Assembly (NCBI RefSeq): GCF_054482595.1
Contig: NZ_CM137008.1
Strand: one strand, 5' to 3'
DNA: 64,000 nt
Shown: in pieces, positions 6,564-40,227 of the stretch
How positions within the stretch are numbered: position 1 is the first letter of the stretch
Layout: each line of letters opens with the position of its first letter
Translations under genes and position numbers: made by a program
Notes under the pieces: model-generated
Database searches by the model: none
Told to the model about the DNA's origin: nothing
The model's input: the letters and a program-made list of their open reading frames with translations, nothing else

Positions 6564-7184
6564 TTATTTTTTCGCCGCGAAACGTGCCGCTGCTTCGTCC
6601 CAGTTCACCACGTTCCAGAACTCTTTGATGTAGTCCGGACGGCGGTTCTGGAATTTCAGGTAGTAAGCATGTTCCCACACATCCAGGCCCAGAATCGGGA
6701 AGCCGGAAGCGCCAGAAATAGCTTCACCCATCAGCGGGGAGTCCTGGTTAGCAGTAGAAACCACCGCCAGTTTATCGCCTTTCAGCACCAGCCATGCCCA
6801 GCCGGAACCAAAGCGGGAAGCTGCCGCTTTTTCAAATTCTGCTTTGAAGTTATCAACGGAGCCGAAGTCACGTTCGATAGCCGCTTTCAGGTCACCCTGC
6901 AGGGTGGTGCCTTTTTTCAGACCTTTCCAGAACAGGCTGTGGTTAGCGTGACCGCCAGCGTTGTTGCGCAGTACGGTTTTCTTGTCTGCTGGCAGCTGGT
7001 CCAGTTTGGTGATCAGCTCTTCAACCGGCAGGTTGGCAAATTCTGGCAGGCTTTCCAGCGCCGCGTTGGCGTTGTTTACGTAGGTCTGATGGTGTTTGGT
7101 GTGGTGGATTTCCATGGTCTGCTTATCGAAGTGCGGTTCCAGGGCATCGTAAGCATACGGCAGGGATGGCAGGGTATAGCTCAT
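6564..7184 (-). CDS. sodA: Manganese superoxide dismutase
   Basis: 206 aa, [36 protein letters not shown]...; Mn/Fe SOD metal ligands present. Confidence 0.95.
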
Positions 7185-7258
7185 ATTCATCTCCAGTATT
7201 GTCGGGCGGCCGATTGTTAATGCCGCGTAAGCAGTTGGTTCATTATAGTTAATTAAAT

Positions 7259-7277
7259 GATATTGAAAATGATTATC
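7259..7277. promoter_or_regulatory. Fur-box-like site in sodA promoter
   Basis: Minus-strand GATAATCATTTTCAATATC resembles Fur consensus GATAATGATAATCATTATC; sodA is a known Fur target. Confidence 0.5.
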
Positions 7278-7468
7278 AATGCCGTACTTTTCGTAAGGGT
7301 ATGGTTTTGCAGGAAAATGCCCGAGATGTGAAGCAAATCACCCACTTAATGCCGTGATTGCCAGTAAATCGACAACGGCGGCAACAGGCGAAAGGTTAAT
7401 CGACAGCACGATTTTTACACTCATCTCGTCGGAGATGTGAAGCGACGAAAAATGATGAGGATAAGAAG

Positions 7469-8503
7469 ATGAGTAACGCGATTACGATGGGGATATTTTG
7501 GCATTTGATCGGCGCGGCCAGTGCAGCCTGTTTTTACGCTCCGTTCAAAAAAGTAAAAAAATGGTCATGGGAAACCATGTGGTCAGTCGGTGGGATTGTT
7601 TCGTGGATTATTCTGCCGTGGGCCATCAGCGCCCTGTTACTACCGAATTTCTGGGCGTATTACAGCTCGTTTAGTCTCTCTACGCTGCTGCCTGTTTTTC
7701 TGTTCGGCGCTATGTGGGGGATCGGTAATATCAACTACGGCCTGACCATGCGTTATCTCGGCATGTCGATGGGAATTGGCATCGCCATTGGCATTACGTT
7801 GATTGTCGGTACGCTGATGACGCCAATTATCAACGGCAATTTCGATGTGCTGATTAACACCGAAGGCGGACGCATGACGTTGCTCGGCGTTCTGGTGGCG
7901 CTGATTGGCGTAGGGATTGTAACTCGAGCCGGGCAGTTGAAAGAGCGCAAGATGGGCATTAAAGCCGAAGAGTTCAATCTGAAAAAAGGGCTGGTGCTGG
8001 CGGTGATGTGCGGCATTTTCTCTGCCGGGATGTCCTTTGCGATGAACGCCGCAAAACCGATGCATGAAGCCGCTGCCGCACTTGGCGTCGATCCACTGTA
8101 TGTCGCTCTGCCAAGCTATGTTGTCATCATGGGCGGCGGCGCGATCATTAACCTCGGTTTCTGTTTTATTCGTCTGGCAAAAGTGAAGGATTTGTCGCTA
8201 AAAGCCGACTTCTCGCTGGCAAAACCGCTGATCATTCACAATGTGTTACTCTCGGCACTGGGCGGGTTGATGTGGTATCTGCAATTCTTTTTCTATGCCT
8301 GGGGCCACGCCCGCATTCCGGCGCAATATGACTACATCAGTTGGATGCTGCATATGAGCTTCTATGTATTGTGCGGCGGTATCGTCGGGCTGGTGCTGAA
8401 AGAGTGGAACAATGCAGGACGCCGTCCGGTAACGGTGTTGAGCCTCGGTTGTGTGGTGATTATTGTCGCCGCTAACATCGTCGGCATCGGCATGGCGAAT
8501 TAA
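7469..8503 (+). CDS. rhaT: L-rhamnose:H+ symporter
   Basis: 344 aa, [35 protein letters not shown]...; 10-TM DMT-type. Confidence 0.95.
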
Positions 8504-21116: not shown

Positions 21117-21950
21117 TTAATTGCTCAAACGCTGCGGATGGGTATAAACCGTTGCCCGACCCGGTTTACAAAAACCTACCAGTGTCAAATTACAGCGCTC
21201 AGCCACTTCTACAGCAAGCGTGGTCGCGGCAGACACCGCAAACAAAATCTCTACGCCGCACATCGCCGACTTTTGCACCATTTCATAACTGGCACGACTG
21301 GAAACCAGTACCGCACCTTGCTGCCAGCTTTCCCCTTCTTGTGACCGGCGGCCTAACAGTTTGTCCAGCGCCACATGGCGACCCACGTCTTCATGCCCGC
21401 CGACCAGTTCGCCAGATGGCAACATCCAGGCAGCGGCGTGAGTACAACCAGTCAGTTGCCCCACTGGCTGAAAATCGTTGAGATGACGTAATGCATCATC
21501 CAGTTTGTTGAGATCAAACGTCTGGGTGAACGGTAGCGGCTGCACCGGTTTTCCGATGTCATTAAGTTGCTCCACGCCGCATACGCCACAGCCCGTACGT
21601 CCCGCCAGCGCCCGGCGGCGCTCCTTCAACCCCATAAAGCGGCGGCTGGAAAGCTCAATTTGTACTTCAAGACCATTACAGGAAGGAACGACATCCATGC
21701 CGAAGATATCGCGCGGACTTTCTATTATCCCCTCGGAAAGCGAAAAACCGAGCGCAAAGTACTCAAGGTCTTTGGGCGACGCCATCATCACCACATGCGA
21801 AATGCCGTTGTAGACCAGCGCAACGGGAACTTCTTCCGCGACCTCATCCAACCGTGGGTGTTGTAAATCGTCACGCCGCCATAACTCAATTTGACGAACA
21901 CCTGTGATATTCATCACATTTTTGATTTCTTTTTGCTGTGTTTTTTTCAC
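21117..21950 (-). CDS. fdhD: Formate dehydrogenase maturation sulfurtransferase
   Basis: 277 aa, [28 protein letters not shown]...; divergent from fdoG. Confidence 0.92.
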
Positions 21951-33951: not shown

Positions 33952-34049
33952 TTTTGCCTCCTTTCGCGCCACAAGAAATTAACTGTAGCGGGAAAGGATG
34001 GGTTTGGCTATGTGGCAAGGTATGAAGCCAGGTTAACGGTCACAAAAAT

Positions 34050-34835
34050 CTACGCGTCTTCCTGGGGAAGAATGATTTCAATTTGGCTGTCTTGTAAGCG
34101 TGATTTTAGCGCAGCGGGCGGCAGCTCGTCGGTAAAGAGCGCAGTGACCTGTGCCACGTTACCAATTTCAACCGCCGCCGAAGCATGATACTTAGTGTGA
34201 TCGGCGACCAGCAGAATATTTCTCGCGTGCGCCATCATCGTTTTCACCACGTTAGCTTCGTTTACATCAAACTCCATCAACGCGCCATCGCTCTCAATCG
34301 CCCCAACGCTTGTTACCAGATAATCAGCACGAAAATCAGCCACAAAGGACGCCGCTGAAGGGCCAATGATCCCGCTATTATGAGAGCGCAACGTACCGCC
34401 GGGCACCATCACTTCAAAGCGCGGGTTGTGGTAAAGAATATGCGCCACACGCAGGCTGTTGGTGATTATCCGCAAATGATTATGGTTAAGTAACGCCCGG
34501 GCAACATGCTCAACAGTCGTACCAATGGTGATAAATATTGTTGAACCATCAGGAATATAGTCTGCCACCGCTTCGGCAATCGCTTTTTTTTCCTCGGTTT
34601 GCGAAACCTCACGCTGCTCGAACGCCGTATTAACGACGCTGGAAGCCCGACCCGCGCCACCGTGATGGCGCGTAATCAGGCCTTGCTCGCTTAATTTACG
34701 AATATCCCGGCGGACCGTCTGCGTGGAGACATCCAGCAGATTTGCCAGCTCATCAATATTCATATACCCACGCTCGGCGATCAGCATGAGGAGTTGGTCG
34801 TGCCGCGGGTTACCGGTTAGTTCGGTAAGGCTCAT
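34050..34835 (-). CDS. yihW: DeoR-family repressor of sulfoquinovose catabolism
   Basis: 261 aa from MSLTELTGNPRHDQLLMLIAERGYMNIDELANLLDVSTQTVRRDIRKL...; HTH plus sugar-phosphate-binding domain. Confidence 0.88.
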   Translation of the reverse strand: MSLTELTGNPRHDQLLMLIAERGYMNIDELANLLDVSTQTVRRDIRKLSEQGLITRHHGGAGRASSVVNTAFEQREVSQTEEKKAIAEAVADYIPDGSTIFITIGTTVEHVARALLNHNHLRIITNSLRVAHILYHNPRFEVMVPGGTLRSHNSGIIGPSAASFVADFRADYLVTSVGAIESDGALMEFDVNEANVVKTMMAHARNILLVADHTKYHASAAVEIGNVAQVTALFTDELPPAALKSRLQDSQIEIILPQEDA

Positions 34836-34868
34836 GAAAATTCCTCGAAAAACCATCACCCTGGCATT

Positions 34869-35765
34869 TTATACAAAAAGTGACAAAAAAGATCGGGTTT
34901 GATCACAGTCAGGGATCCCGGCTCGTCCACCGGGACGTGTGCATTTTAACGCCGCTACACCGCTGGCGAAGCGGACTGACTCCGCTAAATCCCCACTTGT
35001 TGCCAGCGCCACCGCCAAAGCGCCGTGAAAAACATCACCCGCACCTGTGGTATCTACCACATCAACTTTGAAGGCCGGTTGATGCTGACGCCCACCATTT
35101 TCCAGCCAGTCGCAGCCTGCGCTACCCTGGGTCACATAGACATGACCATTTGTGAGCGTTTGTGCCTGTTTTAGCGCACTGGCCATCTCTTTCACGCCCG
35201 TTAAGCGCGCCAGACCCGGTTCTGAAAAGGCCGCGTGATCGCTTAATGCCACCAGCTCACTGATATCCTGCGGCGTAATGTCCCCGTCCAGAACGGTCAT
35301 CACACCCGCCTGACGGGCCAGGGTGAAGGCTTTTTTAGCGCCGTCGTGCCAGCGTACATCTGCCAGCACAACATCCCACTGAGAGAAATCAATTTCCTCC
35401 AACCACTCTGCGTCAGGCAGCAGATCCGGGCTGGGGTAGTTAATGATTATCCGCTCGCCTTTGGTATCCACCATGATGGCGGATTGCGAAGATTTCGCCT
35501 GGTTATACCGTTTGGTGTAACGGGTGTTAACGCCCCAGGATTCCAGCTCTGCCAGCAGGCTGTTGCCCGTGTCGTCATCACCTACGCGACCAATAAAATC
35601 GACCTGCGCCCCCAGCCTTGCCGCCGCAACCGCTGCCGTCGCCGCTGGCCCGCCACCAACTTCCGTATAATTTCTCGCCACGTATTTACCGCTCTCCGTC
35701 GGTAACCCTTCCACGTAATAGATGCGATCCATCACGGTTATACCTACACAAGCAACACGAATCAT
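34869..35765 (-). CDS. yihV: Sulfofructose kinase (PfkB/ribokinase family)
   Basis: 298 aa from MIRVACVGITVMDRIYYVEGLP...; GAGD anion-hole motif. Confidence 0.9.
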   Translation of the reverse strand: MIRVACVGITVMDRIYYVEGLPTESGKYVARNYTEVGGGPAATAAVAAARLGAQVDFIGRVGDDDTGNSLLAELESWGVNTRYTKRYNQAKSSQSAIMVDTKGERIIINYPSPDLLPDAEWLEEIDFSQWDVVLADVRWHDGAKKAFTLARQAGVMTVLDGDITPQDISELVALSDHAAFSEPGLARLTGVKEMASALKQAQTLTNGHVYVTQGSAGCDWLENGGRQHQPAFKVDVVDTTGAGDVFHGALAVALATSGDLAESVRFASGVAALKCTRPGGRAGIPDCDQTRSFLSLFV

Positions 35766-35932
35766 GGTCATTCCTTAAACATTTTGGGATGCGTTCATTT
35801 TAATTTCACCAATTGTTTAAAAAGTGACGGCTGTCAATTTTTTGACGATAAATTACAAATACGATCAAAAACAGACAAGCAAAGCATGTCATAAATGACA
35901 AAAAGTGACATCACTGTATTCAGGAGAGGGTT
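35766..35932. promoter_or_regulatory. Divergent yihV / yihUTS promoter region with repeated AAAAGTGAC motifs
   Basis: AAAAGTGAC at 35820..35830 and 35901..35910 (third copy at 34876..34884 upstream of yihW); consistent with operators of the DeoR-type regulator. Confidence 0.5.
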
Positions 35933-36829
35933 ATGGCAGCAATCGCGTTTATCGGTTTAGGACAAATGGGTTCGCCAATGGCGAGCAATTTATTGCAGCA
36001 AGGGCATCAACTTCGCGTCTTTGATGTGAACGCCGAAGCTGTGCGGCATCTGGTAGACAAAGGTGCGACTCCCGCCGCCAACCCGGCGCAGGCCGCTAAA
36101 GATGCCGAATTTATCATTACCATGTTGCCGAATGGCGATCTGGTGCGCAACGTGTTGTTCGGTGAAAACGGCGTTTGCGAAGGCTTATCTACCGATGCGC
36201 TGGTCATTGATATGTCCACCATCCATCCGCTGCAAACCGATAAATTGATTGCCGATATGCAAGCCAAAGGCTTCAGCATGATGGATGTTCCGGTAGGCCG
36301 TACTTCTGCAAATGCCATTACCGGTACTCTGTTACTGCTGGCTGGCGGCACCGCTGAACAAGTTGAACGTGCCACACCGATCCTGATGGCGATGGGCAGT
36401 GAGTTGATCAACTCTGGCGGTCCGGGCATGGGGATCCGCGTTAAGCTCATCAACAACTACATGAGCATCGCGCTCAATGCGCTTTCGGCAGAAGCCGCCG
36501 TTTTGTGCGAAGCCCTGAATCTTCCCTTCGATGTTGCCGTCAAAGTGATGAGCGGTACCGCCGCCGGTAAAGGTCACTTCACCACTTCCTGGCCAAACAA
36601 AGTCCTCAGCGGAGATCTTTCTCCCGCCTTCATGATCGATCTTGCCCATAAGGATCTTGGCATCGCCCTTGATGTCGCCAACCAGCTGCATGTGCCAATG
36701 CCGCTGGGGGCCGCCTCACGGGAGGTTTATAGCCAGGCGCGCGCAGCGGGTCGCGGTCGCCAGGACTGGTCCGCCATTCTGGAACAGGTCCGTGTCAGTG
36801 CCGGGATGACTGCCAAAGTAAAAATGTAA
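35933..36829 (+). CDS. yihU: 3-sulfolactaldehyde reductase (beta-hydroxyacid dehydrogenase family)
   Basis: 298 aa; N-terminal Rossmann motif [14 protein letters not shown]. Confidence 0.92.
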
Positions 36830-36852
36830 CGACTGGATAAAGGAATAAATGA

Positions 36853-37731
36853 ATGAATAAGTACACCATCAACGACATTACGCGCGCATCGGGCGGTTTT
36901 GCCATGCTGGCGGTCGATCAGCGCGAAGCCATGCGCATGATGTTTGCCGCGGCTGGGGCACCCGCTCCGGTAGCCGATAGCGTTTTAACTGATTTCAAAG
37001 TTAACGCTGCAAAGGCCCTCTCGCCTTATGCCTCGGCGATTCTGGTAGATCAACAATTCTGCTACCGCCAGGTGGTTGAGCAAAACGCGATTGCCAAAAG
37101 TTGCGCCATGATTGTCGCCGCCGATGAGTTCATTCCTGGCAACGGTATTCCGGTCGATAGCGTGGTTATTGACCGCAAAATCAATCCGCTACAGATCAAA
37201 CAAGACGGTGGCAAAGCCTTAAAACTGCTGGTGCTGTGGCGTAGTGATGAAGATGCGCAGCAACGTCTGGATATGGTGAAAGAGTTCAACGAACTGTGCC
37301 ACTCACACGGTCTGGTAAGCATCATTGAGCCAGTCGTCCGCCCACCGCGTCGTGGCGATAAATTCGATCGCGAACAAGCGATCATCGATGCCGCCAAAGA
37401 GCTGGGCGACAGTGGCGCTGACCTCTACAAAGTTGAAATGCCGCTTTATGGCAAAGGTCCGCAACAAGAGCTTCTCTGTGCTTCACAACGTCTGAATGAC
37501 CATATCAATATGCCATGGGTGATCCTCTCTTCCGGTGTCGACGAAAAACTGTTCCCGCGTGCCGTACGCGTGGCAATGACGGCGGGCGCATCGGGATTCC
37601 TGGCAGGCCGTGCAGTCTGGGCATCGGTCGTCGGTTTACCAGACAACGAGCTGATGCTGCGTGACGTTTGCGCACCGAAATTACAACAACTTGGCGATAT
37701 CGTCGACGAAATGATGGCTAAACGCCGCTAA
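36853..37731 (+). CDS. yihT: 6-deoxy-6-sulfofructose-1-phosphate aldolase
   Basis: 292 aa; class I aldolase family. Confidence 0.9.
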
Positions 37732-40029: not shown

Positions 40030-40227
40030 CTTGTATTGATTAGCAGTCAAAATCATTGAAGAACATTTCACTCGCTAAAGGCAACATTATGTATCTTCAA
40101 TTTATTAAGTTAAAAACAGCTCAGCTTCTGTAAAGTTTTTATATATCAGTTTTATGAGAATCATTTTACATAAGCCTGTAATAACAGGAAGGCAACAATC
40201 TCGTTCTCAACTCTATGGAGATTAGTT

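Follow-up and report, generated by a model that had tools for sequence, protein, structure and literature searches.

The 9-mer AAAAGTGAC, which occurs three times in the regulatory DNA of the sulfoquinovose genes of Escherichia coli, is a real, non-random and deeply conserved word, and it forms the core of a longer unit of about 12 bp, 5′-CAAAAA-N-TGACA-3′. Of this unit, here called the box, six copies are found; the csqR promoter contains one and the yihV/yihU spacer the other five. It appears rather probable that the box is the recognition unit of the winged-helix domain of the repressor CsqR (YihW), for which it is the best available candidate.

The DNA analyzed (the window) is a single stretch of 64,000 nucleotides, numbered from its first letter. 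Positions 34000-36900 are 100% identical to many RefSeq E. coli chromosomes, and the segment 34801-35960 differs from K-12 MG1655 by one base, at 35912. Three genes of the locus are considered here.

34050-34835, minus strand: csqR (yihW), gene of a DeoR/GlpR-family repressor, assigned from its ORF, NCBIfam DeoR/GlpR matches and the RefSeq name csqR.
34869-35765, minus strand: yihV, sulfofructose kinase, assigned from its ORF, with the csqR promoter and box b1 within its 3′ end.
35933-36829, plus strand: yihU, sulfolactaldehyde reductase, assigned from its ORF and a match to NF012005 at 602 bits, the first gene of the yihUTS... operon.

Past yihU, the gene order continues with yihT, yihS, yihR, and yihQ. 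By NCBIfam, GlpR is the closest paralogue of CsqR.

The CsqR regulatory system is already known. Purified CsqR binds the yihU/V spacer as well as the DNA upstream of csqR (PMC12608037, PMC8006165), and it is released from DNA by sulfoquinovose and also by sulforhamnose (PMC8006165, PMC12608037, PMC8249747). The CsqR-DNA complexes were described as large, cooperative, and polymer-like (PMC8006165), the CsqR proteins of K-12 and Nissle cross-bind each other's yihU/V DNA (PMC12608037), and gSELEX characterized CsqR as a single-target factor acting at exactly this locus (PMC8249747). Transcription starts were reported at −27/−28 for csqR, at −25/−27 for yihV, and at −15, −25, −35, −62/−63, and −82/−92 for yihU, and it was also reported that CRP binds both the yihU/V and the csqR-upstream fragments (PMC5816610). 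The regulator, its targets (yihUTS, yihV, and csqR), the inducers, and the cooperativity are the same here as in the published CsqR regulon (Shimada et al. 2019; Kaznadzey et al. 2018; Sharma et al. 2021). In the accessible CsqR papers, binding is described by fragment or by ChIP-exo peak, and the box consensus, its six positions, and the overlap with yihV codons are unstated; the accessible literature (excluding the primary paper, Shimada et al. 2019) contains no base-level CsqR footprint, operator, motif, or mutational evidence. Since the system is already known, the contribution of the present analysis is a base-level refinement, together with a putative operator and the csqR promoter embedded in yihV codons.

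The initial annotation had noted three copies of AAAAGTGAC, and these are indeed located at 34876-34884 (site 1), 35820-35828 (site 2), and 35901-35909 (site 3), all on the plus strand; its positions are correct, but two of its end coordinates, 35830 and 35910, overshoot by 1-2 nt. No further copy occurs on either strand of the whole 64-kb window. The three copies compare with 0.38 expected, and at least three were obtained in 0 of 100 window shuffles, so that the recurrence is non-random against shuffled sequence. The word common to all three sites is 10 nt long, AAAAAGTGAC; between sites 1 and 3, the common word is the 13-mer ACAAAAAGTGACA. Because regulatory DNA is AT-rich, shuffles of local composition were added, in which dinucleotides were shuffled within the two regulatory stretches only; under these, P was 0.0095 for finding any 9-mer at least three times (0.0025 when only non-trivial words were counted) and 0.003 for finding a shared word of at least 13 nt. 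With at most one mismatch allowed, the window has 18 matches to AAAANTGACA, a total that chance alone would give; six of these, including all three exact ones, fall within 34876-35910.

The three 9-mers had been recognized correctly, but three further copies of the longer unit were overlooked. The six boxes are listed below, each with a consensus derived per position over the aligned species (for b1, from 56 sequences).

34874-34885, plus strand: b1 (site 1), CAAAAAGTGACA, consensus CAaAAAGTGACA.
35818-35829, plus strand: b2 (site 2), TAAAAAGTGACG, consensus tAAAAAGTGAC, over the −35 region of the yihV promoter.
35832-35843, minus strand: b2′, AAAAAATTGACA, which is also the species consensus, an exact match to AAAANTGACA and invariant across species.
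35866-35877, plus strand: b4, degenerate, CAAAAACAGACA, which is also the consensus, with one mismatch to AAAANTGACA and invariant in nearly all species.
35889-35900, plus strand: b3′, TCATAAATGACA, one mismatch, consensus ..taAnTGACA.
35899-35910, plus strand: b3 (site 3), CAAAAAGTGACA, consensus CAaaAaaTGACA, over the proximal yihU starts (−35, −25, −15).

Boxes b2 and b2′ form an inverted pair, the palindrome AAAAAGTGAC-GGCT-GTCAATTTTT with its centre at 35830.5, while b3′ and b3 form a tandem pair in which b3 begins 10 nt after b3′. All six boxes in the two fragments bound by CsqR share the CAAAAA-N-TGACA form across the target promoters. Additional box-like sequences at 40144-53 (in the yihR/yihQ spacer), 39890-99, and 45632-41 were taken as chance occurrences and dismissed, since they are without reported binding there.

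Conservation was assessed by scanning one genome per species, which yielded 59 syntenic yihU-yihV-csqR loci in Enterobacterales. A motif search in orthologous clusters, proposed in the initial annotation, showed that each box is kept in place in about 50 Enterobacterales species, and over 51 orthologous loci the two regulatory regions have a box density of 17.9 per kb versus 0.18 per kb elsewhere. Across 50 non-Escherichia species, the spacer block 35797-35877 is 92% identical to E. coli, above the expectation from the flanking proteins (62-88% identical), and the 9-mer of site 2 is 97% identical, while the neighbouring stretch 35878-35895 falls to 39% identity. The pentamer TGACA is conserved at 87% in b3′, the flanks of which vary, and at 96% in b3, whose variable position is G, A, or T. 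Box b1 has been lost in Yersinia and Hafnia.

The boxes can also be followed into more divergent loci. The short cassette, a known variant that is about 67% identical and present in 1327 of 5426 E. coli genomes, keeps ATAAAGTGACAAAAA upstream of the regulator gene, ATAAATTACAAATATGCTCAAAAACAGAC in the spacer, and a TGACA-N6-TGACA pair near yihU on the opposite strand. The CsqR of Dongshaea marina (Aeromonadales) is 68% identical, and in this organism ATAAACTGACAAAAA adjoins the csqR −10 hexamer and the spacer contains AAAGAGTGAC-GAAT-GTCAT and GATAAGTGACAAA. Upstream of csqR, E. coli, the short cassette, Dongshaea, and Chimaeribacter all have CA.AAA.TGACAAAAA without variation; in the spacer, the alignment of four lineages has AGTGA, TGTC, TTTTT, and ACAAATAYGMTCA invariant, the last being the most universally conserved spacer block. 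A second homologue search with the Dongshaea regulator as query returned the same Enterobacterales set, with no wider phylogenetic reach. The recognition helix of CsqR, VSTQTVRRDIRKLS, is conserved in 11 of 11 aligned lineages, with a single V-to-I change in two, consistent with the published finding that K-12 and Nissle CsqR bind each other's DNA (PMC12608037). The assignment of the boxes to CsqR cannot be based on conservation alone, because a large part of what is conserved, for example ACAAATAYGMTCA and TTGACC, does not resemble a box. An Rfam scan of 34700-36100 gave no match, and the conserved core is therefore not a known RNA. When words were enumerated de novo, AAATGACA-type words ranked highest for E. 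coli, the short cassette, and Chimaeribacter, with P of about 0.07-0.2; the repeated-word max-statistic for E. coli alone is marginal (P of about 0.07), and no repeated-word enrichment was detected in Dongshaea or Yersinia, each taken alone. Single-species word enumeration is, by itself, weak as support for the boxes.

With regard to site 1, its placement upstream of yihW, 41-49 nt from the csqR ATG, holds, but this DNA is inside yihV and not intergenic. The 9-mer corresponds to yihV codons 295-297 (S-L-F of ...SLFV-stop), and box b1 spans codons 294-298. The published csqR start at −27/−28 from the ATG corresponds to window position 34862/34863, and b1 is situated at about −12 to −23 of this start, abutting the −10 hexamer. 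Two further elements of this promoter were recognized.

34868-34873, minus strand: probable csqR −10 hexamer, TATAAA, read from sequence.
34898-34913, minus strand: CRP-like site of the csqR promoter, CCTGACTGTGATCAAA, with three mismatches to the CRP core and separate from b1.

The sequence CATTTTA at the csqR −10 region is invariant in four divergent lineages, and upstream of csqR the block CATTTTATACAAAAAGTGACAnAAAAGAnCGGGTTTGATCACAGTCAGG is conserved within the yihV reading frame. Third-position entropy within yihV reaches its minimum in the last 14 codons (0.44 versus a mean of 1.32 bits), and the synonymous sites of yihV in b1 are largely fixed (TCA in 47, CTT in 48, and GTA in 53 of 53 species). 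The CRP-like site is kept via synonymous sites as well, with TGT GAT CAA fixed in 50-53 of 53 species, and published work places a conserved CRP site of the csqR promoter at −41.5 (PMC5816610). Judged from these alignments, the 3′ end of yihV offers a clear example of synonymous codons being constrained by regulatory sequence.

In the yihV/yihU spacer, a consensus promoter/terminator scan detected nothing beyond chance; two −10 hexamers are proposed from the positions of the published starts.

35797-35802, minus strand: probable yihV −10 hexamer, TAAAAT, in columns 90-100% conserved.
35860-35865, plus strand: probable yihU −10 hexamer, TACGAT, for the start at −62/−63, lying in ACAAATAYGMTCA.

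The yihV start at −25/−27 corresponds to 35790-35792, and b2 is located at about −27 to −38 of this promoter. The yihU start at −62/−63 corresponds to 35870/71, which makes TACGAT the probable −10 hexamer of that promoter. Box b4 is placed on the same start, b3′ and b3 are placed on the proximal yihU starts, and every box overlaps a published start site or a −10/−35 region.

Site 2 is also CRP-like, with AGTGA-N6-TCAAT matching 7/10 core letters, a level at which the window has 181 equally good matches. From its centre at 35830.5, the distance is 39-41 bp to the yihV starts and 40-41 bp to the yihU start at −62/−63 (primer-extension starts being accurate to 1-2 nt). The invariant letters of site 2 are GTGA, and the C of TGAC is replaced by T in Rahnella, Hafnia, one Buttiauxella, and the short cassette, a pattern more in line with CRP than with a TGACA box. 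CRP and CsqR may overlap at this site. The possibility that all three sites are CRP sites was ruled out for sites 1 and 3, where the CRP second half matches only 1/5 letters, and site 2 remains a candidate. Around site 3, the half-sites TGTCA (35887-91), TGACA (35896-900), and TGACA (35906-10), described in the initial annotation as flanking the 9-mer, are all present, but TGTCA is conserved only within Escherichia, and the two TGACA pentamers are the only conserved ones near this site. The possibility that the conserved element is a GlpR-style operator formed by the E. coli palindrome TGTCATAAATGACA (35887-35900) was rejected, as the left arm of this palindrome varies outside Escherichia.

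The fragments used in the published EMSA were located via the primers of PMC5816610 at window 35698-36032 and 34777-35082, and accordingly hold all motif copies: the six boxes, including all three 9-mers, lie inside the two CsqR-bound fragments, a localization with fragment-level resolution only. In vivo, YihW ChIP-exo gave one dominant peak, the strongest in the genome, at NC_000913.2 4071641-4071681 with S/N 168 (PMC8464067 supplement). Mapped via the NC_000913.3 annotation with a 1976/1977-nt offset, this peak corresponds to about 35847-35887 of the window, with an uncertainty of about 1 nt. It falls within the box array, in the interval from site 2 to site 3, where the degenerate b4 is the sole box covered, and its edges are about 18 nt short of b2 and about 12 nt short of b3; the YihW ChIP-exo listing of PMC8464067 has no peak at site 1/b1.

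The proposal of the initial annotation that the repeated word marks operators of YihW is thus supported in part. The bound fragments, the conserved six-copy family, the promoter overlap, and the invariant recognition helix argue for it, but the support is only partial because the ChIP-exo peak misses the 9-mers, holding only b4, with none listed at b1; because site 2 has features that would suit a shared class II CRP site; because much of the ultraconserved core, probably including the TACGAT −10 hexamer, is not box-like; and because the single-species repeat statistics are marginal.

It is possible, though unlikely, that the true high-affinity CsqR operator is instead the central block at about 35847-35877, ATAAATTACAAATACGATCAAAAACAGACA, that site 2 is the CRP site of both divergent promoters, and that sites 1 and 3 are promoter-context or weak auxiliary elements. 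This block is essentially invariant in 50 species, with ACAAATAYGMTCA in all four divergent lineages, and the ChIP-exo peak (35847-35887) leaves out the 9-mers; however, it includes b4 and a probable −10 hexamer, so that its conservation is compatible with the box model, and the CsqR-bound yihV/W fragment contains no copy of it. The assignment of site 2 to CRP draws on AGTGA-N6-TCAAT being centred about 40.5 bp from the yihV and yihU −62/−63 starts, and on GTGA, not TGAC, being invariant. Against this assignment, a CRP core with three mismatches is undistinctive (181 in the window), the right half of site 2 keeps the non-consensus TCAAT and a T-tract, to which the inverted box AAAAAATTGACA is a better fit than CRP, and the csqR promoter has its own CRP-like site at 34898-34913. 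As to sites 1 and 3, both are without the CRP second half, yet their TGACA is at least 96% conserved, and site 1 constrains synonymous codons.

Clearly less probable is a reading in which the boxes are architectural, namely phased A-tracts or UP-like elements with −35-like hexamers, or sites of a different factor, for example H-NS, Fis, or PhoB, that shape weak promoters. An A-tract does precede every TGACA, GTGACA/TTGACA agree with the −35 consensus at 5-6 of its 6 positions, and no canonical sigma-70 promoter was detected in the spacer. However, neither the consensus scan nor manual reading revealed a −10-like hexamer 16-18 nt downstream of any box in its own orientation, and a role of the boxes as −35/UP elements was rejected for lack of properly spaced −10 hexamers in the spacer or at b1. 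In favour of an architectural role, pentamers at 35843, 35853, 35863, and 35873 are in 10-bp phase, and we take the TGTCA repeats to recall the pho box and CGATAAATT to recall the H-NS high-affinity motif. The pho box consists of two CTGTCAT-type direct repeats with an 11-bp period, whereas the TGACA repeats of b3′/b3 have a period of 10 bp and the TGTCA arm (35887-91) is conserved only in Escherichia, and the boxes were not accepted as pho boxes. In the short cassette, the TGACA pair is flipped yet kept, which argues for a protein site independent of promoter direction, and gSELEX has CsqR as a single-target factor on this locus (PMC8249747). A chance origin of the repeat, as an A-rich word in AT-rich intergenic DNA, could appeal to the AT-richness of regulatory DNA and to the marginal single-species repeat tests, but it is effectively refuted by the shuffles (three copies in none of the 100 window shuffles, and P < 0.01 with local composition) and by the per-position conservation of the copies, in place in about 50 species, including the constraint on synonymous sites, and its probability is almost negligible.

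The preferred reading is that the boxes would be the bases contacted by CsqR, with repression exerted through promoter occlusion by a cooperative array. It is established, from the present analysis and the literature together, that the boxes are conserved, that the fragments containing them are bound by CsqR and freed by sulfoquinovose, and that CsqR represses three transcription units. According to the model, in the absence of inducer, CsqR oligomers would fill the boxes cooperatively over about 95 bp (35818-35910) and at b1, where they would occupy the spacer of the csqR promoter within the last yihV codons. Occupancy of b2/b2′ would cover the −35 region of the yihV promoter and that of the divergent distal yihU promoter, that of b4 would be at the distal yihU start, and that of b3′/b3 would cover the proximal yihU starts. 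RNA polymerase would be excluded by the filled array from all three transcription units, and sulfoquinovose, sulfoquinovosyl glycerol, or sulforhamnose would cause the release of CsqR. The cooperative, polymer-like CsqR-DNA complexes (PMC8006165) fit a multi-box array, and the overlap of the boxes with promoter cores fits repression by occlusion. The proposed mechanism agrees with what is known of CsqR and with the way in which DeoR/GlpR repressors generally act. More tentatively, and with somewhat less than even confidence, the yihV/yihU spacer and the 3′ end of yihV might constitute one conserved nucleoprotein switch, built on an ultraconserved core of about 80 bp in which a six-box CsqR array is interleaved with a shared CRP site and three weak promoters, with an operator and the csqR promoter in the last 14 yihV codons. 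In such a switch, polymerisation of CsqR on phased boxes, and not a single operator, would set the induction threshold, and yihV synonymous codons would be under regulatory selection across Enterobacterales and Aeromonadales.

Several features of this arrangement resemble known systems. Site 2 is similar to a class II CRP site in its palindromic form, its GTGA left half, and its distance of about 40.5 bp from two divergent starts, at promoters without −35 hexamers, and CRP binds the yihU/V fragment (PMC5816610). On the other hand, 7/10 core letters correspond to the chance frequency in the window, letters departing from the CRP consensus are conserved in the right half of site 2, and sites 1 and 3 are not CRP-like. 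In the glp regulon of E. coli, the DeoR/GlpR-family repressor GlpR is released by a sugar derivative and occupies adjacent half-sites of about 10 bp over promoters as a cooperative oligomer. By analogy, CsqR is a repressor released by sugar derivatives with several promoter-overlapping boxes, for which cooperative oligomer occupancy is proposed. The half-site of GlpR, approximately TGTTCGAT within a 20-bp palindrome, is unlike CAAAAA-N-TGACA, and the CsqR boxes differ from it in being mixed in orientation (an inverted pair, a tandem pair, and singles), with one in a coding region. The DeoR operator of the E. coli deo operon is the 16-bp TGTTAGAATTCTAACA, and the deo operators, separated by hundreds of bp, work through looping. 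Site 2, as AGTGACGG/CTGTCAAT, is a 16-bp imperfect palindrome equal in size to the DeoR operator, and multiple operators and an oligomeric repressor would be common to both systems. However, the sequences are unrelated, and in place of widely separated operators, five boxes are here contained in about 95 bp.

Sulfoquinovose ranks among nature's most abundant organosulfur compounds, and for sulfoglycolysis the E. coli yih cluster serves as the reference system. The accepted picture of yih regulation is unchanged by the present analysis. The box consensus, with its six mapped copies, would provide direct targets for footprinting and mutagenesis and a basis for predicting the CsqR regulon in other genomes, and it could explain how the divergent short cassette still cross-binds K-12 CsqR.

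The intergenic core of about 80 bp between the divergent genes yihV and yihU (35797-35877) shows 92% identity across 50 non-Escherichia Enterobacterales, and its conservation exceeds that of the flanking proteins. Within it, the ACAAATAYGMTCA block is retained even in Aeromonadales and in the short cassette, a 67%-identical E. coli variant of the yih cluster. The CAAAAA-N-TGACA boxes, which are presumed CsqR sites, or the putative -10 hexamer account for only part of this core. Within 35843-35877 there are four pentamers in exact 10-bp phase, each of which is nearly invariant, with the following start positions:

35843, TGACG
35853, TTACA
35863, GATCA
35873, AGACA

These pentamers coincide for the most part with the published in vivo ChIP-exo peak of YihW (CsqR), which maps to about 35847-35887, and may be either an array of degenerate direct repeats that CsqR recognises or no more than a feature of promoter architecture.

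No species other than E. coli and E. whittamii has the perfect-arm palindrome TGTCA-TAAA-TGACA (35887-35900), and its right arm alone is kept outside these two. The sole difference from K-12 MG1655 within 34801-35960 is at 35912 (C in the window, A in K-12; + strand). This variant base is located two bases past box b3 (35899-35910). The word CGATAAATT (35846-35854) is similar to the H-NS high-affinity motif TCGATAAATT, and most other species carry CCATAAATT at its position.

The promoter of csqR lies within the last 14 codons of yihV (285-298, 34869-34913), together with box b1 (34874-34885) and a CRP-like site. The strongest synonymous-site constraint within yihV is also found in codons 285-298, with a third-position entropy of 0.44 bits versus a mean of 1.32 bits (53 species). 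With regard to other sites, TGTGATATTCATCACA (21903-21918) perfectly matches the CRP core palindrome TGTGA-N6-TCACA; every other match in the window has at least one mismatch. The AT-rich yihR/yihQ spacer (40030-40227), for which no CsqR binding has been reported, has a single sequence that weakly resembles a box, AAAACTGATA (40144-53 on the minus strand). TTAAAAACAGCT is also present in this spacer.

The divergent yihTUVW short cassette (approximately 67% nucleotide identity), a variant that is already known (PMC12608037), was detected in 1327 of 5426 complete E. coli genomes. It is followed by genes for a zinc-dependent alcohol dehydrogenase and an MFS transporter, and a TGACA pair near its yihU lies on the opposite strand with an 11-bp period. 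One such locus (L062) is as follows:

NZ_CP076262.1, 4344871-4352401, short-cassette locus of E. coli strain 0-4

In strain EC147566 (match H1, NZ_CP139360.1, 4679183-4683421), an IS4-like ISVsa5 element interrupts the match, and the annotation lists two partial DeoR/GlpR regulator features; csqR appears to be disrupted by the ISVsa5 insertion. In the Dongshaea marina locus (L063), the yihV homologue (7068-7963) is called as two PfkB open reading frames of 173 and 99 aa, which suggests that the kinase gene beside an intact csqR is frameshifted or split in this member of the Aeromonadales.
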